From a virus (taxonomy: Duplodnaviria > Caudoviricetes): 38,858 nucleotides of DNA. Position numbers and translations under genes: made by a program. Below are positions 9,922 through 37,046 of the stretch, one piece after another; the first letter of the stretch is position 1; each line of letters opens with the position of its first letter. A model generated the notes under the pieces. It had not been told where the DNA came from and made no database searches. It worked only from the letters and a program-made list of their open reading frames with translations. The stretch covers positions 1 through 38,858 of IMG/VR virus record IMGVR_UViG_3300036770_002623; one strand, 5' to 3'.

Positions 9922-11939
9922 ACATCATAGAGATGGAGGACATGGTCAAGGGTCTTCCCGACCAAGTCCTTATGCAAGAAGCGCAGGCTCCTTCGGGTCG
10001 TATCCCGCAGTTCCTCGCGTTGTCGGAAGTGCAGCGCCGCAAGGATATGCGTGATCGCTTTCAACAGCAGGCTCCGCAGCAGACCGTCAAGGACATGATC
10101 CTAGGGGGCACCGCTGGTCCGCCTTCACCCCAGCCACCGCCGATACCCGGTGGCACCCAACCCGGCGGTGCCCCTCCTCAACCCGTGATGGCGTATGCCG
10201 GTGGCCGCATGCCGAACATGTACGCCGATGGTGGGTTTATTGAAAAGGCTGCGTATGTCCTTCCTAATCCGGTTCGATCAGTCAAAGCCTTGGTTGATCT
10301 GCCGCGCAATCTTGCCGCGCTGAAACAAGCCAGAGAGACTGGCCCTAATCCGAATAACCCCGGAAACTTTGGATATAAGCCAAGCGAGTCTGGGTATGGT
10401 CCTGATCCTTTTGGGATGGGTCCGGCTGGGTTTATGCAGGCTGGGCAGAAAGCAGAAGCCATGGATCGCGCTGGCGCTATGGCATTGGGTAACCGATATC
10501 AGGACTACCTGAATCGCATGACCAACCCGTTCGCGGGAACTGGCTCCGGTATTGTCCGAGATGAACGTCTCGGTGATGACAGTTTAAACATGGGTCTTGG
10601 CGCATTCTCTGGCATGTCTGCTGGTGGTGTGGTCAAGATGCAGGAAGGCCGCACTGTCCCTGATTTCCAGAACTTGATTTCGTTGCCTCAGTTTGGTGGC
10701 AATCGCAATAGCAATCTTCTGGCTATCGAAGAACTTCTGAAGATTCCTGAGGAACTGCGTACTCCGGAACAGAACCAGATCATTGCAAGTCTGTTGCCTG
10801 CCATGCAGGAGTTCCCGGTAACACCTCCGCCTCCGCAGGTTCCCGAAACTATTGCCGCCCCGACCATGGCTCAAACCTCTGCGACTGTTGCGTCTCCTGC
10901 TGCTGGTACAGCACCGCCTGCTGCTCCTCCGGGAAGCACTGATTCGTTCATGCGCTATCTGCCCGGTGTCGAGTCAATGGTCAGCAAGATGATGCCGCAG
11001 GCTGCTGGCTTCGATGTCGCTGGCTACACAGAAGCATTTAAACCCAAGGAGTCTGATTACGTCAGCCCTGAGTTCAAAGCAGCCAGAGAGAAGATGATCA
11101 CGGATCTTCGCACTGAAGCGCAGAAGCGCCGCGAAGCAGACATGGCTTTGGCGCAGCGTTATATGAGCGAAGCAGAGGCTCCCATCAAAGCCGCTGAGGA
11201 AGAGGCTAAGAAGGCTGCACTGGGTGCAGTTCTGACTCGCCTTGGCGCAGGACTCATGCAGGGTGATGCTGCTGCAGGGTTGGCCATGGCTACGGAAAGT
11301 GCCGAGAAGATCATGGGTCGTTCCCGTGAACTGTCTCAGGCCGAGCGTCGTGCTGCCAAGCAAGAGTTCCGTGTGGCAGAACGCGAAGCCACTCGCGCAG
11401 AGCGTGGTTCGGCTGATCAAGCGTTCAATATGCAGGCTCAGAATCTGTTGTCGGATGAGAACGCACAGCGCATGTACGTTCGCGATTCGAAGAACTTTGC
11501 TCAGTCTGTCTATGGCTTGATGCGAGATGCTGGTAAGGATGCTCGTGCTGCTCACATGGAGTCAGTGCGTTTGACCTTCAGCATTGCTCAGGCCATTGAC
11601 ACTGCCGAGCGCGAAGCCAAGCGCGAAGCCGGATTGACGGATCGTCAATACGCTCAGACCTTCGGCACCGTGTTCGACAATGTCATCAAGGCTTTGGAAG
11701 ATGCGGACTTTGTTGATCCGAAGACGGGCGAATCCCGTGCCCCGACTGGTGAAGAGTTGTTGGATCTTGCCAACAAGAAGGCTGGTGAGATTCTGACTAC
11801 CCGTGGTATTCGGGCACCCAGTCAATCTGCAAATGCCGTTCGGGTTACAAGTCAAGACGAGTTGAATAAACTTGATCCGGGAACGCCATACATTTATGTT
11901 GGCCCCGGATCGGACAACAAAGTAAGGATTAAGCCGTAA
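9918..11939 (+). CDS. Internal virion protein (ejection module)
   Basis: P.G.IPQFLALSEVQRR..MR N-terminus, YAGG/YADGG/SAGG motifs, helical C-terminal half. Confidence 0.55.
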   Translation: MNIIEMEDMVKGLPDQVLMQEAQAPSGRIPQFLALSEVQRRKDMRDRFQQQAPQQTVKDMILGGTAGPPSPQPPPIPGGTQPGGAPPQPVMAYAGGRMPNMYADGGFIEKAAYVLPNPVRSVKALVDLPRNLAALKQARETGPNPNNPGNFGYKPSESGYGPDPFGMGPAGFMQAGQKAEAMDRAGAMALGNRYQDYLNRMTNPFAGTGSGIVRDERLGDDSLNMGLGAFSGMSAGGVVKMQEGRTVPDFQNLISLPQFGGNRNSNLLAIEELLKIPEELRTPEQNQIIASLLPAMQEFPVTPPPPQVPETIAAPTMAQTSATVASPAAGTAPPAAPPGSTDSFMRYLPGVESMVSKMMPQAAGFDVAGYTEAFKPKESDYVSPEFKAAREKMITDLRTEAQKRREADMALAQRYMSEAEAPIKAAEEEAKKAALGAVLTRLGAGLMQGDAAAGLAMATESAEKIMGRSRELSQAERRAAKQEFRVAEREATRAERGSADQAFNMQAQNLLSDENAQRMYVRDSKNFAQSVYGLMRDAGKDARAAHMESVRLTFSIAQAIDTAEREAKREAGLTDRQYAQTFGTVFDNVIKALEDADFVDPKTGESRAPTGEELLDLANKKAGEILTTRGIRAPSQSANAVRVTSQDELNKLDPGTPYIYVGPGSDNKVRIKP

Positions 11940-14900
11940 TGGCTGCAAACTGGTGGGAAATAGGCAAACTCGTTGATACCAAACCCACCACCACAGACGA
12001 AGAAAAAAACTGGTGGGAAATTGGGCGAGTTGTAGAGGAGCCTAAGAAGGAACCTCAACCATCAGTTGCGCCTGAAGCACAGCCTGCTCAAGGGCCGGTT
12101 GGCTTTGGTCCGTTGTCTATGCTGATGGAGTCTCTTCCTGCCGTAAAGCAGGAATTGACCAGCGTCTTTACACCAGAGACTGTGCAGGGTGTTGGCTCCA
12201 ACATTCCGTTGACGGCCCAACTTGCCATCCTCAGCAGCAACCTTGAGACCATCGATAACACGATGGTGGATTCGCCTGAGAAACAAAAGGCTCAGGCTGA
12301 CACGCTTAAACAGATCGAAGATATCCAGCGCCAGATTCAGGCAAACACCCCAGAAGATCTTGGGTTTTTGCAGCGCGGTGTCCGCCTCGGTCTTGAGAAT
12401 TTACCAGCAATGGGCATCGGAACCATTGCGTCTATTGCTGCCCGTAGTCCTGCCCCTGCATTAGCCACGGCTGGTGCGTTGACCCGTACTCAGTCCTATG
12501 GTCAAGCCAGAGCAGAAGGTCTTGCGCCTGACTTGGCGGGAACCTATGCCGATATCAATGCAGCCATTGAAGTAGGTCTTGAGGCTTCACCAACTACCAA
12601 GTTGCTGGATGCCTTCAATGTCAAGGATGCGGCTGGTCTTAAAAAGAAAGTCCTTGAGTTTGCTTTAACGGAAGGCGTTACAGAGCAAGCAACGACAGCC
12701 CTGCAAACCCTGAACGACTTGGCATTCCAACTAGATCAACAGTTGGCCAATGCAGAATCCCCGTTAGAAGCCGCCAAGATTCAAGCGGAGCGTCAGGCTT
12801 TGACCGCCGTGGCCACTGTTGTTGGTGGCGGCACACAGGCTGCTGGCGTTGGTGCCCTGAACAAGATTCAGCGTGATCGCTTGCTGAAGCAAGTCGAATC
12901 TGGCGAGAGAGACCTTGAAGATATTGGCGTTGAGATAGAGCAGATCCAGATTGAGAAAGCCCGAGAGGATGCTCTCAATAGCGCAGCCAATATTGCTGCC
13001 CCAACTCCCGATGAAGTTCGCACTGAGCCGGGTCAGACTGAAGCAACTCCGTTCCAGTCAAGCGAATCGTACGCAGAAAAGATATTCAATTCTGTAGGTC
13101 AGTTCATTCCTACAGATACGACCTTTAAGGTTGAGACCAAGGACATCGATGGAACCCAATCCATCGTAGTGACTGACCAAAATGGTAGGCAATATGGTCA
13201 GGCATTCCAGAACAAGGATCAGGCTGACCAGTTAGCATTAAGTTTAAACAATCTAACTAAGAGCCGTGACGGTGTCCTAAAAGAACTGGAACCGCTGGGC
13301 ACCTCCCTTAAGGACGTGCTGAAAGGCTACGGTCTTAACGATATCGGTCTCAAGTTAGACACCAAGATCTTCGGTCGTCGTGGTGAAGCCATGACATCCG
13401 AGGGTTTGTTTGATCCGGTGGTTCGACAGGTATTCCTCGCGGTCGATGCCATTGATCCGACCGGAACCCTGAACACAGACCAGCGCCGTGAGGCCCTCAG
13501 AGGCGTTCTACGCCACGAGGTTGTCCATGCCTTGCGCTATCTGGACCTCTGGAAGAAAAAGGAATGGAAGACGCTAGAGAAGGCTGCGGCTAACCTGAAG
13601 AAGGAAGGCACGGACAAGACCTATCTAGACGTTGCGAGGGAAGCCTACTCCGACCAGAACAAAGTCGTTCAGGTTGAGGAAGCCGTGGCGGAGATGATCC
13701 GTGACGTAGCGGATAGACAGGCTAAGTTTGCTGGCCGCCCTCGCAGTCTCTCTGAACGTGCGGTGCAGTTTTTTGATCGCACTAAGAATGCGCTGACCGG
13801 TGCTGGGTTCCAGACCTATGACGATGTGATCCAGCGTTTTGAGCAGGGCATCGTGGGTTCCCGTGAAAGAGGGCAGATCCGCACCCTTCGCGCTGTCGAG
13901 GAGCGTGCTGCCGAGAAGGGACAGGTTCCCGAAAGATTGCAGCGTCTCTTCACCAACCCTGAAGAGCGCAACAAGTTCCGTCAGGAAACGGTGCAGAACC
14001 TACAGACCCAGAAGGGTCCGGTTTCGCAGCCTGTTGCGAATAGCCTGAATACCCAAGGACTCCGAGAGTCGCGTTCGTTCGTGGAACCCGTGCCTGAAAA
14101 GATTCAGGTGGGCGACCGATCCGTTGGAACTCGTGATTCCGAAGGGCGTTTAATCTACTCCGGCTATGAAGGACCGGAAGTGTTTGGCATCCAGACTCGC
14201 CCGACACAGGAAGGTCTGCAGAACTTCTGGAACTGGTTCGGTACTAGCAAGACCATTGACAAGCAGGGTCGTCCGCTGGTGTTCTATCACGGAACCGCTG
14301 CTGATATCACTGCCTTCCGTCCCAAGCAGGCCGGGTCTGTATTTGTTACCCGTAGTCCTGAGTTTGCAGAAGAGTTCGGGTTCTTGTCTGACAACTACAT
14401 GGTCAGCAACTTCCCGGACTTCATGTCCGATCAGCAAGTCGTGGACGTGCTGAATGAAACGCTTGCCAACCCGGCTTCGTTCTCACCCAAGTACTACGAT
14501 CAAGTTGCTGCTGCCCGTGATCAGGCTATTGCAGATGTGCAAGCAGGCAAGGCGATTCGCCCCGCTGCACTGAAGCCGCTCAAAGACATTGCCGCTGATG
14601 GCCGCAGTTCCCGCTACCTGAATGCGATTCAGAAGCGGCTCCCGTCCAGTGCCAACATGATCCCGGTCTATGTCAAGGCAGATAAGCCTTGGGATTACGA
14701 TAACAAGGATGATGTAAAGGCAGTGGTTCGTCGCGCCAGAGACAATGGCGCAGACATCACTGCATCCATGATCGAAGAGATTGGTCAGGGTAACTGGCAG
14801 ACCATCGAAGGATCAGAGGGCAATGCCCCGATCCTTGATGCGATTCGGGAACTGGGCTATGACTCTATGTATGTTGAAGAGCAGGGTGAGAAGAACCTTG

Positions 14901-17900
14901 CTGTCTTTGATCCGGGTCAGGTCAAGTCTGCCATTGGAAACAATGGTGAATTTAGTCCGACCACCCCGAGCATTCGGGAGTCGCGAAAGCAGCCTGTTTA
15001 TAACATTGTCAACAGTCGCACTGGTGAAGTTGTTGGCCAAGCCGACACTATCAATGGCGCTCGTCGTGCAGTAGATCGTCGTGACAATCAGTACGGTGCG
15101 AGTGTCCACACGATTCAAACTGTAGATGCCGAAAGAGATGCAGAGCAAAGGGCAAAGTCCAGAGAAAGACTTGGTCTTCCTGCTTTGCGTGAGTCGCGTG
15201 GCATTAACGTAGAGGTTGCACCTGATCCTCGTGATCAAGAAGCCACTAATACGTTTAATAGTTTCCCAGAAGAAACTCGCGCACAGATCACCACCGAAGT
15301 TGCGGACCCTGTTGTTCGCAATGTCATGCGTAATCTTGGCATTCAAGATTATCAAGTGGAGTACACCCTTGGTGGATTCCAAGGCGGTACGCAGCCGTCC
15401 ATCATTGTTCGCTTTGGCAATGACGTTCCATACGAAAGAATCATTGAGTCCAGCAAAATCCTTGGAACTTTGTGGAAGCAGCAAGCCGTCATTACTTACG
15501 ATGAGAATGACAAAGAAGGCGGCGATCAAAGACAGTATGTCAAAGTTACTCCGAGCAGACCGTTGTCGTACTCGGAAACTCAAAATTTGTTTAACCGTAT
15601 TTATCAGGCATATCCAAACGCAGCAGGATTTACTAGCCGCGAAGGATCTTTGGTGTTTGGAAACTTTGACAACACACCGCCTGAAGAATTTTTGAACAAC
15701 TTACGTTCAGTAGTTGGCGACAACATTGCTGACTTGGATTATGATGCCGAAACGTCATCATCTATTTTTAGATCTGACTGGATTGAACCTGTAAATTTAG
15801 AAGGCACTCAGTATGGGCAAGTTACTGGAACACCGGGAGTTGCAGCCGGGAGAGACAATGTTCGGCGGCAGAGGGAGTTTGATTCCCTTCAAAGCCAGTC
15901 CGATGAACTCTTCAGGAGAGCAGTTGAACTTCGATCCCAACGCGCCAGAGACAGAGCAGGACGCGATCAAGTCGGAGCAATTGCGCCGCTTGAAGGTGCG
16001 CCAATTATCGAAGGCGCTACCGGGCCGGACCCAGAAATAGTTTCTGTTGCTGAAGGATATGCCCGTAAACTTGGGATTCCTTACAGCCGTCAAAGATCTT
16101 ACGTTGAAGTAGATCCGGATAGAGCCAAGCGCATTGCCGATGCTTACGAAGCAATGGCACATGCACCGCAAGATCCTGCGGTTAAACAGGCTTACGATGA
16201 TTTGATTCGCCAAACTCGTGATCAGTACGATGCACTGACCGATGCTGGATATTCCTTCACCTTCTTCGATAGCAACACCGATCCGTATCAAGGCAATCCT
16301 TGGAACGCGATGCGGGATCTCCGTGCCAACAAGCGCATGGCTGTGTATGGAACCTATGATGGTTTTGGAACAGAAGGGATTACTGATGCTGCAGTAGAAG
16401 ACAATCCTCTTCTACGAGACACTGGTTTGCGATGGCCAGATCAGAATGGTGTTCTTCGTCCTGTTACCGCCAATGATCTATTCCGTGCAGTGCATGATGC
16501 ATTTGGTCATGGACTTGAGGGTGCAGGGTTCCGTGCCAGAGGAGAAGAGAATGCATGGCAAGCCCATGCTCAACTCTTTACTGGCCCTGCTCTAGGCGCT
16601 CTGACATCTGAAACTCGCGGCCAAAACAGTTGGCTGAACTACGGTCCATACGGTGAAAAGAACCGTACTGCGAATGTGCTAGACACTGTATTCGCAGAGC
16701 AGAAGTCTGGACTCATGCCGTCATGGACATGGCAAGAAGGACTTGAAACGCCGGTAGTTCCCGCCGCCCGAGAGGCAAAGCGTAAGAAGCCGAAGGAAGG
16801 CGTTCCGCTTGGCCCACCGAATCCGGGTCCAGAGACGGACTTCGATACCACTGCCGCTGCTGAGGCTCTAAACAACAGCCAGCCTGTCGATCAGATGGGT
16901 ATCCCGGCAGGTCCGCTTGTCACGGACACCATGCCAGACAACACGGTAGACATTTCCCGTGCGCGTCTGGACCCGCTGATGAAGCGACTGATCACGGGCG
17001 TGGAGTTCTTCCAGTCTGCACCAGACAAGTTGCGCTCTGGCGTGGGCTTGACCGATATCGCCAAGCGAATCGAAGACTACTACGACACCTATGCCGAGAG
17101 GCTAGGCATCGTCAACAGCATCATCCGTGATGCGAATAAGAACATCCGGATTGGTGGGAACAAGTCTGCCCTTGAAACCTTTGAGCGTTTCATCCGTGCT
17201 CGTGAAAACAATCGGGCCGATGAGGCTGCCGCTATCAAAGCCGAGGCTTCGGACAGCGACCGTCAATTGATTGACGCATGGGAAAAGATTGCCGAGGAAA
17301 CCGGTCGCGTCAATCTTAGTGTCCGCACACCGAATGGTCAGCCGATGAAGGTCTATGACCCGAATCTGGTCACGGGAACCTATGGCGAAAAGGTAGGCGG
17401 CTTCCGCCCAATCAAAGCGGTTAAACAGTTCTTCCCAAGGACCATGCGTCGGGAAGTACTGGAAGTGATGATGAATCCGAACACTGATCCGGCTCTCTAC
17501 AACGAACTGCTGGACGCATTGGTTGCATCTGGAAAAGCAGAGGATCACGAATCAGCAGACGCATTCCTTGTCAGAGAATATTTTTCTGATGAAGTCAAAC
17601 AGGATTATTTTGCTGGTGTTGAGAAAGCCCGTACTGACCCGCTCCCGGAAATCTTCTACGACTACTCATGGGATGCGGCTACCCGTTACCTTCGAAAGTG
17701 GGCACGTCGTACATCTCAGATCCAGTACTTCGGTCAAGAGATGGGCGAGTTCCATAAGGACTGGTTCGACACGAACATCAAGAAGATTCGTGACGACGAA
17801 ACACAGAAGTATTTAAACGAAATCAAGAATCGTATCTACGAGATTGAGTCGTTTGGGCCACTCACCAACATCATGAGTTGGCTCAACTCAATTGCGACGG

Positions 17901-19450
17901 GAACCATGCTTGGCAATCCCATCGGGGCCAGCCTGAATCTTTTTGGTGGAACCACAAGTAATGTGCAGGCGTTTGGAATTCTTCAAGTTGGCAAGTCTTA
18001 CTTGGAACTCCTCACGGATTGGAAGCAAGTCCAGAAAGAGGGCACGACCCTTGGCATTCTGAACACAGACTTCTTGAATATCCTTTCTGATCACGTTGAG
18101 AATGATGCTGGAAAGTACTTCTCTAAAACAGAGAAAGTCTCTGAGGCATTGTCTAAGTTCACCAATGTCATGCTGACTTATGGTGGATTCAACGGCGCAG
18201 AAAACGTGGTACGCGCCACTGCAATGTTAGCGGCAAGAAGTTGGCTGAATGATTCACTTAAAGCAGTCAATGAAAATCCCAACTCCAAAAAAGCCAAGAA
18301 GTTTTACGAGTGGGTAAGACGAGAGAACCTTGACGCAGACAAATTGATCTTGGAGAACGGGGCTGGCGAAGAGACCGGCAAGTTCTTGCGACGTGCGGTC
18401 AACGTGCCGCAGGGTTCTTACAAGATCGATATGACCCCTGTCTTTGTCGATACTGCTGCTGGACGATTCTTCCTTAAGTATCAAAAGTTTGGAACCCAGA
18501 TTAATCGGTTCTTCTATCGCCATTTTCTCAAGCCATTCTTTGACAACCCAAGTCCTGCTACGTTTTTTAGAGTGATTGGATTCCTTGGCTCTGCAATTGT
18601 TGGCGGTCAAGTTATTCTTGCTATACGCGAAGCGTTTGGATACGGTGATCCGGGTCCGGACGATGAGGAAATCAAGAAGGCATTTGAGAACGAAGACACC
18701 TCCAGAGGTTGGGCTTTGTTGTTCTCTCGCGTCTGGCAAAACATCATGGCGGCAGGCAGCGCGGGTAACTTTGGAAATTACCTTCAATTTAGTTTGGATT
18801 GGCAAGATCAGTTACGCCCGAAGAATCCATTGAGTCCTCCGGGAATTGCAAGCATTGATAACTTTGTTGAATTTGTTAACAAGATCCTCAACCAGAAAGG
18901 AATTACTGCAAGAGATATCGATGAGACCTTAGAAACATCTTTATCTTTCTATCGTGCCTACAAACGAATTGGATTGGGCGCTTTAGATTCGATTGGTGCA
19001 GATTTCAAGGAAGTCAAACGCTTTGCCAGTCGAAAGGAAATGCGCGAGATCCGTGAGATCAGCCGTCGTTACAGCGACGAGATGGAGTTGGAGTACAAGC
19101 GTCGTGTGGCTCCGGGTGCTGTCGTTCGCACTCCGATGTCTCCCGTAAATCGGGCTGTTGTTGACGCGCTGTATGCCGGTGATGGAGCCAGAGCCAGAGC
19201 CATCATCCGTGAAGCACAGAAGGGGCTGCCGAGGAAAGAGCGTGAACGTGTTCTTCGCAGCGTTCAAGCAGCGGCCCGTAATGGACAACCAATTCAGATT
19301 GCTGGCGTGTCTCCGTCCAAGGAGATTCGTCGCGACTTTGATCGTTGGGCTAGACAGAATCTTCCTGCCGAAAAGGTTCAGTTGATTAAACGAGTGGATC
19401 GCAATTACAGGCGAGCCGCTCGCACAGCAGGGATCAGTATTGGCGACTAA
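11939..19450 (+). CDS. Large polyvalent virion protein: zincin HExxH domain, ADP-ribosyltransferase (ART-PolyVal-like) domain, second HxxxH domain, LPD-like C-terminus
   Basis: LRHEVVHAL...EEAVAE; NFWNWFG.SK..D.QGRPLVFYHGT...VF..GQVKSAIGNNGEF; FRAVHDAFGH...GEENAW. 2503 aa, last gene of the injection module. Confidence 0.75.
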   Translation: MAANWWEIGKLVDTKPTTTDEEKNWWEIGRVVEEPKKEPQPSVAPEAQPAQGPVGFGPLSMLMESLPAVKQELTSVFTPETVQGVGSNIPLTAQLAILSSNLETIDNTMVDSPEKQKAQADTLKQIEDIQRQIQANTPEDLGFLQRGVRLGLENLPAMGIGTIASIAARSPAPALATAGALTRTQSYGQARAEGLAPDLAGTYADINAAIEVGLEASPTTKLLDAFNVKDAAGLKKKVLEFALTEGVTEQATTALQTLNDLAFQLDQQLANAESPLEAAKIQAERQALTAVATVVGGGTQAAGVGALNKIQRDRLLKQVESGERDLEDIGVEIEQIQIEKAREDALNSAANIAAPTPDEVRTEPGQTEATPFQSSESYAEKIFNSVGQFIPTDTTFKVETKDIDGTQSIVVTDQNGRQYGQAFQNKDQADQLALSLNNLTKSRDGVLKELEPLGTSLKDVLKGYGLNDIGLKLDTKIFGRRGEAMTSEGLFDPVVRQVFLAVDAIDPTGTLNTDQRREALRGVLRHEVVHALRYLDLWKKKEWKTLEKAAANLKKEGTDKTYLDVAREAYSDQNKVVQVEEAVAEMIRDVADRQAKFAGRPRSLSERAVQFFDRTKNALTGAGFQTYDDVIQRFEQGIVGSRERGQIRTLRAVEERAAEKGQVPERLQRLFTNPEERNKFRQETVQNLQTQKGPVSQPVANSLNTQGLRESRSFVEPVPEKIQVGDRSVGTRDSEGRLIYSGYEGPEVFGIQTRPTQEGLQNFWNWFGTSKTIDKQGRPLVFYHGTAADITAFRPKQAGSVFVTRSPEFAEEFGFLSDNYMVSNFPDFMSDQQVVDVLNETLANPASFSPKYYDQVAAARDQAIADVQAGKAIRPAALKPLKDIAADGRSSRYLNAIQKRLPSSANMIPVYVKADKPWDYDNKDDVKAVVRRARDNGADITASMIEEIGQGNWQTIEGSEGNAPILDAIRELGYDSMYVEEQGEKNLAVFDPGQVKSAIGNNGEFSPTTPSIRESRKQPVYNIVNSRTGEVVGQADTINGARRAVDRRDNQYGASVHTIQTVDAERDAEQRAKSRERLGLPALRESRGINVEVAPDPRDQEATNTFNSFPEETRAQITTEVADPVVRNVMRNLGIQDYQVEYTLGGFQGGTQPSIIVRFGNDVPYERIIESSKILGTLWKQQAVITYDENDKEGGDQRQYVKVTPSRPLSYSETQNLFNRIYQAYPNAAGFTSREGSLVFGNFDNTPPEEFLNNLRSVVGDNIADLDYDAETSSSIFRSDWIEPVNLEGTQYGQVTGTPGVAAGRDNVRRQREFDSLQSQSDELFRRAVELRSQRARDRAGRDQVGAIAPLEGAPIIEGATGPDPEIVSVAEGYARKLGIPYSRQRSYVEVDPDRAKRIADAYEAMAHAPQDPAVKQAYDDLIRQTRDQYDALTDAGYSFTFFDSNTDPYQGNPWNAMRDLRANKRMAVYGTYDGFGTEGITDAAVEDNPLLRDTGLRWPDQNGVLRPVTANDLFRAVHDAFGHGLEGAGFRARGEENAWQAHAQLFTGPALGALTSETRGQNSWLNYGPYGEKNRTANVLDTVFAEQKSGLMPSWTWQEGLETPVVPAAREAKRKKPKEGVPLGPPNPGPETDFDTTAAAEALNNSQPVDQMGIPAGPLVTDTMPDNTVDISRARLDPLMKRLITGVEFFQSAPDKLRSGVGLTDIAKRIEDYYDTYAERLGIVNSIIRDANKNIRIGGNKSALETFERFIRARENNRADEAAAIKAEASDSDRQLIDAWEKIAEETGRVNLSVRTPNGQPMKVYDPNLVTGTYGEKVGGFRPIKAVKQFFPRTMRREVLEVMMNPNTDPALYNELLDALVASGKAEDHESADAFLVREYFSDEVKQDYFAGVEKARTDPLPEIFYDYSWDAATRYLRKWARRTSQIQYFGQEMGEFHKDWFDTNIKKIRDDETQKYLNEIKNRIYEIESFGPLTNIMSWLNSIATGTMLGNPIGASLNLFGGTTSNVQAFGILQVGKSYLELLTDWKQVQKEGTTLGILNTDFLNILSDHVENDAGKYFSKTEKVSEALSKFTNVMLTYGGFNGAENVVRATAMLAARSWLNDSLKAVNENPNSKKAKKFYEWVRRENLDADKLILENGAGEETGKFLRRAVNVPQGSYKIDMTPVFVDTAAGRFFLKYQKFGTQINRFFYRHFLKPFFDNPSPATFFRVIGFLGSAIVGGQVILAIREAFGYGDPGPDDEEIKKAFENEDTSRGWALLFSRVWQNIMAAGSAGNFGNYLQFSLDWQDQLRPKNPLSPPGIASIDNFVEFVNKILNQKGITARDIDETLETSLSFYRAYKRIGLGALDSIGADFKEVKRFASRKEMREIREISRRYSDEMELEYKRRVAPGAVVRTPMSPVNRAVVDALYAGDGARARAIIREAQKGLPRKERERVLRSVQAAARNGQPIQIAGVSPSKEIRRDFDRWARQNLPAEKVQLIKRVDRNYRRAARTAGISIGD

Positions 19451-33664: not shown

Positions 33665-34737
33665 CAAACACCTGCCTTGCTGCGTTCAGCAGCAGTCCAA
33701 CCGGCCAAGAGCATTTCCTTCACGTTCTGCCACTGCAGCCCTGCTGCGAGTGCCAAAGCGCCCTTCTGGATCATTCGCGTGGAAGCCACACGGCGAATGG
33801 AGTGCTGCGAAATTTTCTCGCGCAGTTCCCAAACGAAATTCAGCAACTTCTGATCGTTGGTCAGTGACCGTTCGAACGCACGGTCATAGTCCATTTCGAC
33901 CACCATCCAACGGTCGAGCGTCGCTGCGTCGAGTTGGTTGCGACCAACGTACAACGCACCGGCTCCCGTGCCGTAGGTGTTCGCAGAAGCGATCAGCACC
34001 GAGTTCGGATCGCGGCGAACGTAAGTGTCGAGACCACCCGCAGCACGGGCCTCCACGTCGAAGCCGCCATTGGCAGTGGCTTGGTTGACCACCGTCAAGC
34101 AGTTCGGATCGAACGCATCGACCTCGTCGAAAAGGAACACGCCGCCAGAGGTGTATTCGCGAACGAATACGGAGGCCGTGTATTCGAATCGACCGCCCTC
34201 GCCAGTGGGCAGCAAGCGACCCACCAACTGGGCTTCAGAGACACCGGCAGAACCGCTGATCGAACCGAATGACTTGCCCAATGCCTTGGCGACGTTGTGC
34301 GCGAGGTGAGTCTTGCCGCAGCCTGCAGGGCCGACGAGCATGACGTTCATGCCTGCAGAGGCCAGTTTCAGCACGGTTTCGAAGACCGGATGCTGATGCC
34401 CTTCCAGTTCCACAACCGGACGGTCAGCGACCTTGACTTCGATGCGTCGAGCGGGTGCATTTGCCAGACGCTCATCGACGATCCGTTCGACTGCAGCCAC
34501 GTCCATCGACGAGCCTGCGAACTGGGCAGCGATAGCCTGCACCGCAGCGGCGAGGCTTGCCGCAGCATCGACGGCGGGAACCGGAGGGGTCGCGACAGGG
34601 AACACCGCATCGCCCTCGTACAGGGCTAGCAGCGCCTCGTCAGACATGTTCGGCGACTTGCCCTGACGCACGGCATGCATTTTCAGGTACGAACGATCCG
34701 CATCAGACAGCGGGAGCGAGAAATTGCGCTTGGACAT
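33664..34737 (-). CDS. MoxR/CbbQ/CobS-like AAA+ ATPase
   Basis: Walker A GPAGCGKT, Walker B FLFDEVD, ASANTYG.G...YVGRNQLDAATLDR, STR. Confidence 0.9.
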   Translation of the reverse strand: MSKRNFSLPLSDADRSYLKMHAVRQGKSPNMSDEALLALYEGDAVFPVATPPVPAVDAAASLAAAVQAIAAQFAGSSMDVAAVERIVDERLANAPARRIEVKVADRPVVELEGHQHPVFETVLKLASAGMNVMLVGPAGCGKTHLAHNVAKALGKSFGSISGSAGVSEAQLVGRLLPTGEGGRFEYTASVFVREYTSGGVFLFDEVDAFDPNCLTVVNQATANGGFDVEARAAGGLDTYVRRDPNSVLIASANTYGTGAGALYVGRNQLDAATLDRWMVVEMDYDRAFERSLTNDQKLLNFVWELREKISQHSIRRVASTRMIQKGALALAAGLQWQNVKEMLLAGWTAAERSKAGV

Positions 34738-34739
34738 GA

Positions 34740-35351
34740 TTAGCCCTCCACGTTGAGTGAGTTGATAGACGCGCAGACCGGGCAAGCCGATTCAGCGTGT
34801 AAACGATTCGCCTGCAAGGCAGAAACCCGAGCCGTCCAGTTGCAGGAACCGCACTGCAGTTTCAGCAGGCGAGTGCCCTGCTTCTTACGAGCGTTCGGGT
34901 CAACCTTCGCATGCGGGTACGAACCCAGTTGATTGACGATGCGCTCCAACTTGCCGCGCAGTTCGGCACTGGGAACCGTTGCGGTCATGGGACCGACAAG
35001 GCCAATGGCACGGCAGACACGGGCGAACTCGCCACGATGGCCGCACTGAATCCCTGCCCAGACATGCGCGAGTTCATGAGCCAGAACCGCGATCACATCG
35101 ACCGGCTTGTCGAGAATCGGGTTGATGAAAACCTCAAAGGTTCCATCAGCCGAAATGCTCGGATCGAAGGCTTGACCGAGCGTCACCTTGCCGGTGCGTG
35201 ATCCGCGATAGCCAATCGGGAAGCCGCAAGCGACCCGATACTTGCGTTGCTCCCATGAGATCGCATCGACAGCGGCGAGGGGGAAAATCTCGTGCTGCAG
35301 CATGACTGCAGCGGCGGCTAGCCATGACTCGCGTTCGTTGAACTTGACCAT
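34740..35351 (-). CDS. SprT-like zinc metalloprotease
   Basis: LAHELAH.....GH...F, C-terminal CxxC...CPxC. Confidence 0.8.
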   Translation of the reverse strand: MVKFNERESWLAAAAVMLQHEIFPLAAVDAISWEQRKYRVACGFPIGYRGSRTGKVTLGQAFDPSISADGTFEVFINPILDKPVDVIAVLAHELAHVWAGIQCGHRGEFARVCRAIGLVGPMTATVPSAELRGKLERIVNQLGSYPHAKVDPNARKKQGTRLLKLQCGSCNWTARVSALQANRLHAESACPVCASINSLNVEG

Positions 35352-35384
35352 GATTCTGTTCTCCATGTTGTCGGTATGTTGTGA

Positions 35385-35414
35385 AGTATAAACGCTGCGT
35401 TGTGTCGCAGTCAA
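35385..35414 (-). promoter_or_regulatory. sigma70 promoter (early)
   Basis: TTGACT-N18-TATACT. Confidence 0.7.
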
Positions 35415-35431
35415 CTTGTGTAAACGGTGAC

Positions 35432-35510
35432 GGTCTCGTCAGATGCCGCATGACGGCATGACATCCCGGCCTGTTGGCAATCAAGCCCGAAGGCGCGGGA
35501 TGTTTCGACC
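35432..35510 (-). ncRNA. Type II hammerhead ribozyme
   Basis: GGUC-GAA-ACAUCCCG...CGGGAUGU-C^-AUGCCG(UCAUG)CGGCAU-CUGACGA-GACC: complete catalytic core and three perfect helices. Confidence 0.9.
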
Positions 35511-35752
35511 TAGTTTCCAGTGGCCTTTTCGATAGCCTGTCTGGCAATGTTGTCGTATGTCTGCCATGCGACAGGCATTGCGTCGAAGTGCTTCTGGTAG
35601 GCATCGACGATGTCTTGCAGCGCGGCGCTGAGTGCCTGAATTTTTTCGTTTTTGCGCTTGATCTGCCTGTGGTAGTCGCGAAGGTCCTCTTGCATTTCGC
35701 TGATTTCTTGACGCAAGGCGTTGGTGTTGTTTCCGTAGATGTCGTAACTCAT
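35510..35752 (-). CDS. Hypothetical coiled-coil early protein
   Basis: CAGGAGAACAG RBS; ends AR.AI.KATG. Confidence 0.75.
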   Translation of the reverse strand: MSYDIYGNNTNALRQEISEMQEDLRDYHRQIKRKNEKIQALSAALQDIVDAYQKHFDAMPVAWQTYDNIARQAIEKATGN

Positions 35753-35764
35753 GACTGTTCTCCT

Positions 35765-36010
35765 GTTGTGTGTGACTCAGTGCAGCGTCCTCAGCGAGGG
35801 CGCTCTACTGAATCAAGGCTTCCCGGTAGATTGGGCATCGTCACACTGTCGGGCGACTCGCGAAATGTCGGTCATCGTCTTCAACCCTACGGCTACACCG
35901 ATGCTTTAGGCCGGATTCCCCTTGCGGGAACCGTCGGGCTGCTTGCGCTCATCCGACACCAGAACCTTTGTTTTTCACCTAGCGGCTTGGCCTGTCTGGG
36001 GGGCCAGTGC
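35765..36010 (-). ncRNA. Structured 5' leader / candidate ncRNA
   Basis: No plausible CDS between promoter and first gene; several hairpins, two GCAA tetraloops. Confidence 0.45.
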
Positions 36011-36015
36011 TGCGC

Positions 36016-36044
36016 ATTCTCCGGATTACATGACCACCTGTCAA
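36016..36044 (-). promoter_or_regulatory. Strong sigma70 promoter (first early promoter)
   Basis: TTGACA-N17-GAGAAT with an upstream A-tract. Confidence 0.75.
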
Positions 36045-36117
36045 CAACTTTTTTCGTTTACACGCACACACATTTACAGAACCACAATCAATTCAAGCAC
36101 TTACGAGCGAAAAAAAT

Positions 36118-36146
36118 TTGCGTCTAAACGGTGCGGAACGTAGGAT
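36118..36146 (+). promoter_or_regulatory. Putative sigma70 promoter for terS
   Basis: TTGCGT-N17-TAGGAT with an upstream A-tract. Confidence 0.55.
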
Positions 36147-36218
36147 TCGGTGAGCGATCATGGTCTATACATGATCAAAGATTAGCAATTACACGGTAAA
36201 ACAAGGGCAAAACGCACC

Positions 36219-36767
36219 ATGGCAGGCATGACAGATGAATACGGGTTGACTGCAAAACAGCGGAAATTCTGCGAGAACGTGATCAGCGGCATGAATCTCG
36301 CGGAGGCATACCGGAATTCATACGATGCGGAGAACATGAAGCCAGCCTCAGTGCAGAAGCGTGCAGCGGAACTGATGGTGGACGGGAAGATCAAGGGGTG
36401 CTTGCAGGCTCTAGCAGCGGTCAGGAGGCAGCAGAGTGAGGCTCTGACGATCTCTGACAGAGACATGCTCGTCTCCCTGCTCCGCAAGTGGTCGAAGGGT
36501 GACGAGTCTGCGACGAGTTCCCAGTTGCGTGCAGCCGAACTACTGGGCAAGGCATGCGGCCTGTACCGGGACGTTGTCGAGGATCACCGTGAGCGTCCCT
36601 CGACATTGGTAGCGGCTGAGTTGGAGGCAAGGCTAGCGTCTATGCTTCAGCCTTCGGTGCAGCCTCAGGCTTCCGCATCAGTTCCCAGTGAGAGCGCAGC
36701 GCCTTTGGAGCGTGTAAACGTAGCCGATTCGCATGATGACGCTGCGAGTTCCACCGTAACTCATTGA
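36219..36767 (+). CDS. terS: Terminase small subunit
   Basis: LT.KQ.KF......G.N..EAYR.SY, A.ELLGK..GLY; upstream of terL. Confidence 0.85.
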   Translation: MAGMTDEYGLTAKQRKFCENVISGMNLAEAYRNSYDAENMKPASVQKRAAELMVDGKIKGCLQALAAVRRQQSEALTISDRDMLVSLLRKWSKGDESATSSQLRAAELLGKACGLYRDVVEDHRERPSTLVAAELEARLASMLQPSVQPQASASVPSESAAPLERVNVADSHDDAASSTVTH

Positions 36768-36769
36768 TT
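36757..36769 (-). promoter_or_regulatory. IHF-binding consensus
   Basis: AATCAA-TGAG-TTA is an exact match to WATCAAN4TTR; a one-mismatch copy lies at 36091-36103 (+). Confidence 0.5.
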
Positions 36770-37046
36770 CTACAAGGGGTGTCGGGGTTAAGTCGCCGTG
36801 TAAACGAGGCGAAAAGCGAGGTGCCGACCCCCCTTTTTGCAGCGTGACGCACCATGGCTGGTATACATGCGATTCCGCTCCCACAATGCTGTACTTTTGT
36901 AACGTGTTGCTTTCACGCAACACACCCCCTACCCCTTGTTGTTCTATAGATCGGGGTAGTTCCAATGGTTCCCCGGAGATTTTTATAGAGAGAGGTTCCG
37001 GAGTCCCAGTCTGTAAAATTTTTTTATAAAAATTCCCCTCTACATA

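Follow-up and report, generated by a model that had tools for sequence, protein, structure and literature searches.

A predicted type II hammerhead ribozyme at an early-gene stop codon of a tailed phage, probably a self-cutting spacer of the early transcript

Introduction

Why would a self-cleaving RNA motif lie precisely at the stop codon of an early phage gene, a few nucleotides ahead of the next promoter? We address this question for a hammerhead ribozyme in IMG/VR record IMGVR_UViG_3300036770_002623 (Duplodnaviria; Caudoviricetes), where the window is the whole stretch of 38,858 nucleotides that was analysed. It is a phage record with an estimated completeness of 65%, and it encodes a terminase, a primase-helicase, an exonuclease and a Sak-like annealing protein. 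No cultured phage was found to share DNA with the window beyond chance, while four sequencing runs match 0.07-0.16 of its words, all of them through contigs that mostly belong to related phages.

Hammerheads in phage DNA have a precedent. The accessible part of Perreault 2011 (PMC3088659) describes clustered prophage hammerheads that flank single, non-constant genes. Three arrays cleaved in vitro and one did so in E. coli, neither circular nor spliced products were detected, and the role proposed is the cutting of long transcripts to gene-length mRNAs. Two reviews (PMC6155905, PMC6765202), in their accessible sections, describe what hammerheads do in bacteria and phages as open and their purpose as unproven. 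For the copy in the window, the initial annotation had suggested an insulator between two early transcription units. Here, we examine the motif itself, the family to which it belongs and its surroundings in related phages, and weigh what it may be for.

A complete type II hammerhead in the window

Reading of the letters and a scan of both strands reveal a complete type II hammerhead motif on the minus strand at 35510-35432, which is the sole type II match of that scan in the whole window. All elements of the class are present, namely a CUGANGA core (CUGACGA, 35442-35436), the GAAA (35506-35503) and an NUH triplet (GUC, 35462-35460), and the topology is that of type II, with stems I and III closed and stem II open. 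Stem II comprises 4 bp between GGUC (35510-35507) and GACC (35435-35432), and stem III comprises 8 bp (35503-35496 with 35468-35461) followed by an extension. Stem I comprises 6 bp (35459-35454 with 35448-35443), to which the scan script added a seventh pair, U-G, and is closed by the 5-nt loop UCAUG. The cut is predicted between C35460 and A35459. The three stems around the core measure 6/4/8 bp in the window copy, and are variable yet paired over 203 distinct instances. When the dinucleotides were shuffled, 15 of 300 sequences gave any match at stems of 3/3/3 bp, and none of the 300 did so at 6/4/8 bp.

The canonical core, GUC triplet and stem lengths given in the initial annotation are thus borne out, and the cut site that it placed between 35460 and 35459 agrees with the geometry of the motif. 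Both boundaries that it drew also hold: stem II starts on the last base of the TAG stop codon of the upstream ORF, which begins at 35752, and 17 nt after the ribozyme comes the -35 hexamer of the next promoter, at 35414. Neither a type I-III pattern scan nor a sequence model of the long form found further hammerheads in the window. Judged from its sequence, the 35510-35432 hammerhead very probably cleaves, at least partly.

The stem III cap is one extended hairpin

Stem III carries a cap at 35469-35495 (minus strand), in which a bulged C precedes a 4-bp helix, a 3x3 internal loop (UCG/AAC), a 3-bp helix and a 6-nt loop (UUGAUU). The initial annotation had instead placed a branch of two mini-hairpins on stem III. 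Both inverted repeats do exist as letters, but the branch does not hold as a fold: at -29.5 kcal/mol against -37.4 kcal/mol, it is 7.9 kcal/mol less stable than the single extended hairpin, and its pair probabilities are 0.0. Each of the 22 distinct homologous contexts folds the cap as one hairpin, as do eight forms folded separately. Both mini-hairpins could form in 10 of the 22 contexts and neither can form in another 10. In the remaining two, C-G in the long helix has become U-A, a compensatory change that costs the second mini-hairpin one of its pairs. The branched form was rejected on these grounds.

Homologous caps have a UCG/AWC internal loop and a GGC-UUGANY-GCC tip, where the tip letters were largely fixed by the search patterns, with L006, L007 and L014 found without such patterns. 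In a pattern search of viral contigs, the cap is restricted to hammerheads of the window's phage clade. The idea of an independent, widespread motif was rejected, as 7 of 108 distinct matches lie in hammerheads of the clade and the rest are apparently unrelated and mostly coding. Base pairing between the cap loop and the region of the SprT start was likewise dropped, being by eye not conserved in relatives. After the cut, the released RNA would have the cap as its 3′ end; that the cap is a protein or nuclease site is a guess.

A large sub-family below the Rfam cut-off

The initial annotation had proposed the Rfam Hammerhead_II model as a check. When run, the search left the window copy undetected: it does not reach the gathering cut-off of RF02276 (37 bits), and no Rfam match appears at E<=10. 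Fifteen related loci also gave no match to RF02276 at cut-off, and three of the four short homologues in L004 score 25.5-30.9 bits on this model (cut-off 37). Yet about 560 IMG/VR stretches, along with about 130 stretches of bacterial and archaeal genomes, match one and the same narrow ribozyme pattern. Because its members score below the Rfam cut-off, the family is missed in routine annotation despite its large size. Among the cellular genomes, this pattern is frequent in contigs labelled Gastranaerophilales or Melainabacteria (L468-L547), while three phage loci (L056, L082 and L107) hold 7-9 hammerheads in about 5 kb.

From the first 217 matching loci together with the window, 203 distinct instances were collected. 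Stem II has 4 bp in 192 of the 203 listed, and stem I with its loop spans 17 nt (6 bp and a 5-nt loop) in 186, whereas in the RF02276 consensus stem II is 2 bp long, and loop I is longer and forms a pseudoknot with the tail. Over the same instances, the sequences of stems I and III vary freely with their pairing kept. The core has variants: L183 and L026 read UUGACGA (C3U), L485 and L534 carry one more base after CUGAUGA, and L118 reads CUGAUGU. In the window, loop I (UCAUG) and the tail (GUCAC) meet in a C-C mismatch mid-way, which leaves them short of the RF02276-type pseudoknot of at least 4 bp. Nor is the pseudoknot enriched in the family, where its frequency (40 of 202, against 34.5 +/- 4.4 after shuffling) is that of chance, and it was rejected as a family feature. 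The window copy differs further from RF02276 in its long stem III cap and in a tail that pairs with the core.

What might stand in for the pseudoknot is suggested by two single bases. A study of an sTRSV-type hammerhead reportedly describes a U1.7-A trans-Hoogsteen contact. In the accessible text of PMC9217987, a U seven nucleotides past the cut pairs with an A at the end of stem II in an activity-enhancing contact, from which the authors' own constructs gained little. In the present family, the first base of loop I (U1.7, at 35453 on the minus strand) is U in 200 of the 203 listed members, and the base immediately 5′ of stem II (A11.5, at 35511 on the minus strand) is A in 201 of the 203, where the search pattern fixed the stem II letters and the GUC for many instances and fixed neither U1.7 nor A11.5. 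In the window, A11.5 doubles as the middle base of the upstream stop codon. This conservation fits a trans-Hoogsteen pair with A11.5 as the putative tertiary partner of U1.7, and the contact may replace the usual loop I-tail pseudoknot throughout the family; the pairing is deduced from conservation, since invariant bases cannot themselves prove it. The family resembles the type described in the accessible text of PMC9217987 in having a near-invariant U seven nucleotides past the cut and a near-invariant A directly after a 4-bp stem II, and differs from it in that the A there ends a GUGA loop II, whereas here stem II is open and the A is supplied by the end of the upstream gene.

Promoters, leader and neighbouring genes

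Reading leftward, the order is a promoter (36044-36016), a leader, an 80-aa ORF, the ribozyme, a second promoter (35414-35385), the SprT-like gene and an AAA ATPase gene. The first early promoter (TTGACA-17-GAGAAT, 10/12 matches, minus strand) has an inferred start near 36008, and the second (TTGACT-18-TATACT, minus strand) holds an inverted repeat in its spacer. Promoter-like sites occur in this region at chance frequency (3 against 2.6 expected), so support for the two promoters comes from relatives, where the hexamers of the first are recognisable and where TTGACN, an 18-nt spacer and TANACT are common to six distinct variants of the second. The two promoters named in the initial annotation are plausible, and relatives retain their hexamers while spacers vary. 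In L004 a double change preserves the inverted repeat of the 18-nt spacer (35410-35395, minus strand), and in L010 and L011 different inverted repeats take its place; the repeat is possibly an operator, or a hairpin in read-through RNA. Terminator-like sites are also at chance level (6 found against 5.5 expected), and the sole candidate here is the weak hairpin in the promoter spacer. The 8-mer GTTTA(C/G/T)AC, likely a regulator binding site, occurs at 34804, 35393, 35425, 36056, 36129, 36719 and 36805, such that 7 of its 8 copies fall within 34700-36900, or 5.7% of the window; two copies lie in or beside the second promoter and one lies just upstream of the first.

The conserved, structured 5′ leader (35773-36008, minus strand) would make up the 5′ half of the RNA set free by the cut. 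An alignment of 26 sequences contains 45 predicted pairs, nine of which have changes on both sides, and in 8 of the 26 a domain of about 55 nt is missing, with a short hairpin in its place. The leader has no Rfam match and, folded alone, is not more stable than its shuffles (z -0.74), so the case for its structure comes from covariation only. By eye, the conserved loop CCAGA of the first hairpin could pair with UCUGG at 35963-35959, as an alternative to the long-range closing stem.

The 80-aa ORF (35510-35752, minus strand, with AGGAG at 35764-35760) has no PHROG match and no Pfam match over cut-off. Its place is taken by a different gene in relatives, and it is one of many interchangeable small early genes. 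The SprT-like gene (34740-35351, minus strand, 203 aa) is the first of the SprT/AAA ATPase block; its phage homologues are annotated as SprT-like protease, its match to PF10263 is weak and below cut-off, and the gene after it matches AAA_5 above cut-off. Elsewhere in the window, a 2503-aa ORF (11939-19450, plus strand) follows several large ORFs lacking PHROG matches; these probably encode internal virion proteins.

The hammerhead follows stop codons, rarely precedes promoters

Thirty-eight loci were fetched by means of the SprT-like protein, several of them near-duplicates or incomplete, and 20 of the 38 hold 1-4 hammerheads, all on the sense strand and upstream of SprT. The 18 distinct leader-to-SprT spans contain 55 ORFs, which fall into 26 families, and each span has 0-4 hammerheads: 11 spans have a full copy, one has a core variant, one has a truncated copy and five are without any trace. 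The hammerhead must accordingly be dispensable, given that 5 of 18 close relatives lack a trace of it and two more have only the core variant or the truncated copy. Several copies flanking single genes of non-constant identity are the pattern of the clade, with one copy in the window itself.

Flanks were analysed for the 148 of 203 instances with 400 nt on both sides, the other 55 being dropped. An upstream ORF ends within 80 nt of the ribozyme in 119 of the 148, and within 5 nt in 98 of these, while the next start codon lies no more than 45 nt downstream in 113. Promoters of the sigma-70 type, the only type tested, precede the next start in 8 of the 148 copies, and seven of these eight are SprT-proximal copies of the window's clade. 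As so few copies have a promoter, and mostly there is no room for one, the position ahead of a promoter belongs to the last copy in one sub-clade and not to the element. The second promoter is present in 7 of the 18 spans, which are close kin, with a hammerhead upstream of it in all seven and directly upstream in six. Of 22 contexts with the long form, 9 have a promoter after it, and in the other 13 it stands before SprT or other genes without one.

A 3′ tail that pairs with the core

Folding brought out a feature overlooked in the initial annotation. In an alternative 5-bp hairpin (35428-35441, minus strand), the tail at 35432-35428 pairs with the core at 35441-35437, and this pairing excludes stem II. 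For the window copy, the predicted probability of the tail-core hairpin is 0.95 against 0.04 for stem II, and the hairpin lies 1.6 kcal/mol below the active secondary structure in a model without tertiary energy. Because this hairpin is predicted to outcompete stem II, the window copy may cut poorly. It carries five of the six tail-core pairs.

The tail, with the consensus RUCA, is found in 26 of the 202 listed copies and is absent from 176. In all 26, core position N7 and the first base of the tail are paired (17 U-A, 8 C-G, 1 U-G and 0 C-A), while in the other 176 the two positions are not linked; four further copies keep the tail-core pairing one base out of register. A scan that admitted all four base combinations gave 121 distinct matches, comprising 80 full hammerheads and 41 others. 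The 80, which represent 64 distinct stem I sequences, include 71 U-A, 8 C-G, 1 U-G and 0 C-A, such that non-Watson-Crick combinations amount to 1 of 80 (the U-G) against 12 of 41 among the other matches; the two covariation sets overlap, and kin within them are not independent. Among near relatives, L003, L589 and one contig of run X2 have lost the tail through deletion of a single nucleotide. Of 111 copies found in cellular genomes, 2 have it intact. An earlier description of a core-pairing tail was not found in the literature searched, which did not extend to subscription journals. The motif also had no match in the accessible supplements of Perreault 2011, a weak result given that the alignment there is partial and probably gapped.

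Gene exchange around the ribozyme

Gene g6 occurs with three different ribozyme bodies behind it and with three different next genes, the long form is found after four different genes, and a contig of run X2 departs from the window sequence exactly at 35511. Genes are reshuffled at ribozyme-free junctions too, and for this reason we take gene exchange to be a side effect. Comparison of L183 with L170 and L175 shows the same gene end continuing into a ribosome-binding site versus a hammerhead, with CAGG common at the junction, which reads as a ribozyme gain or loss at a 4-nt overlap. RNA-mediated mobility by way of half-ribozymes was rejected, as 5 apparent 3′ halves stand against 360 full copies; most of the five are variants or truncations, and only L114 breaks near the cut site.

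Discussion

The reading that we favour, and consider rather likely, is that a hammerhead at an early-gene stop codon is a self-cutting mRNA-processing spacer that splits the early transcript into gene-sized RNAs. Host sigma-70 polymerase would start near 36008 and transcribe the leader and the 80-aa ORF, and the motif would then fold, using the U1.7-A11.5 contact instead of the usual pseudoknot, and cut at 35460|35459. The 5′ product would measure about 549 nt (36008 to 35460), in keeping with the RNA of about 550 nt whose release had been proposed from the inferred start, and would end in the long stem III hairpin with a 2′,3′-cyclic phosphate. The 3′ product would begin with a 5′-OH and the stem I hairpin and continue into SprT, which also owns a promoter. 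RNA ends of this chemistry, 5′-OH and cyclic phosphate, slow decay and can be ligated. They are the ends of hammerhead products as given in the accessible part of PMC6155905. Translation and decay of each piece of RNA would not depend on the adjoining piece, as is the case for engineered ribozyme insulators. Folding of the 3′ tail onto the core would separate the products once the cut is made and may reduce the proportion of RNA that is cut, while the invariant 10-11 nt at the ribozyme ends seem to act as exchange points in small-gene swaps, again as a side effect.

How does this compare with an insulator, in which the ribozyme exists to part the first transcription unit from a SprT/AAA unit with its own promoter? 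The type II hammerhead and the plausible promoters of that proposal stand, and the conservation of the second promoter in six variants, its position after a hammerhead in 7/7 spans (directly in six) and the spacer inverted repeat, which a double change preserves in L004 and at which polymerase could pause or stop, all suit it. As the purpose of the element, however, it is distinctly unlikely, with a promoter after 8/148 copies and none after the long form in 13/22 contexts. Cleavage does not end transcription, so that polymerase from the first promoter reads into SprT unless the weak spacer hairpin terminates, and terminator-like sites are at chance. The proposed uncoupling from the SprT/AAA operon cannot be achieved by cleavage alone, and whatever insulation the element provides, if any, would act through RNA ends. 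The tail raises another alternative, a regulated switch, in which the tail-core hairpin keeps the ribozyme off and cutting depends on translation of the upstream gene. Since the stop codon abuts stem II, such gating is conceivable, and it draws on the covariation of N7 with the tail base (26/26 RUCA copies paired, and 79/80 Watson-Crick in the wider scan) and on a stop codon no more than 5 nt from stem II in 98 of the 119 copies with an upstream ORF. A terminating upstream ribosome would here cover stem II and the GAAA during synthesis of the tail and so decide which fold wins, an idea that we regard as doubtful. The switch as a whole is also unlikely, for the window copy has five of six pairs, a 1-nt deletion abolishes the tail in two loci and one contig, 176/202 copies are tail-less and only 2/111 cellular-genome copies have it intact. 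Moreover, product release after cleavage accounts for the same pairing with no regulation needed, and the simplest reading of the tail is product release or partial damping.

Two further explanations move away from mRNA processing. The element could be of use chiefly as DNA, as a repeated cassette at which small genes are exchanged, or be a near-neutral passenger of such exchanges, which would suit the varied ribozymes and genes after g6, the four genes that precede the long form, the divergence of the run X2 contig exactly at 35511, the Sak-like annealing protein of the phage and the parallel with the PeSL cassettes of T4-type phages, as far as the accessible text of PMC2839356 describes them. 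The pairing, the core, U1.7 and A11.5 are nonetheless kept while stem sequences diverge, which indicates selection on RNA catalysis and shortens DNA homology, and junctions without ribozymes shuffle as well; we consider this explanation very unlikely. It is scarcely probable that pairs of hammerheads cut out RNAs the size of a gene for circularisation, with the single copy in the window only maturing the 3′ end of a stable leader RNA. The ligatable product ends, the up to four copies in relatives and the conserved, structured leader are compatible with this scheme, but the window has a single copy (in a record estimated to be 65% complete), the tail hairpin would oppose religation, the leader is kept by relatives without hammerheads, and no circles were detected in the work described in the accessible part of Perreault 2011 (PMC3088659).

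The window hammerhead is, by its motif, a real type II ribozyme from a sub-family missed by Rfam, in an arrangement known since 2011. With the hammerheads of RF02276 and of the accessible part of Perreault 2011 it shares the topology and core, the position between small non-constant phage genes and the proposed role. Like RiboJ, as presented in the accessible part of PMC7536230, it lies before a ribosome-binding site and would fix the 5′ end of the downstream gene; RiboJ, in contrast, is engineered and placed after a promoter, whereas the present element is natural, follows a stop codon and is repeated along the operon. The PeSL elements in the accessible text of PMC2839356 are likewise repeated intergenic cassettes among small variable early genes, with exchange at the cassettes. 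There, each cassette consists of a sigma-70 promoter and a terminator stem-loop, while the ribozymes are mostly without a promoter, which follows in 8/148.

In essence, the clade provides a natural test series, with 0 to 4 copies, with the tail or without it (a 1-nt difference), with a promoter or without, and with core variants. If the tail does not gate cleavage, the window copy is an ordinary member of the arrangement known since 2011; if it does, it is a rare natural regulated hammerhead. In that event, DNA phages would possess a translation-gated natural ribozyme switch, by which an early message is cut only when and where upstream translation lags, and which would tune the release of a structured 550-nt leader RNA with a conserved recognition hairpin at its 3′ end.
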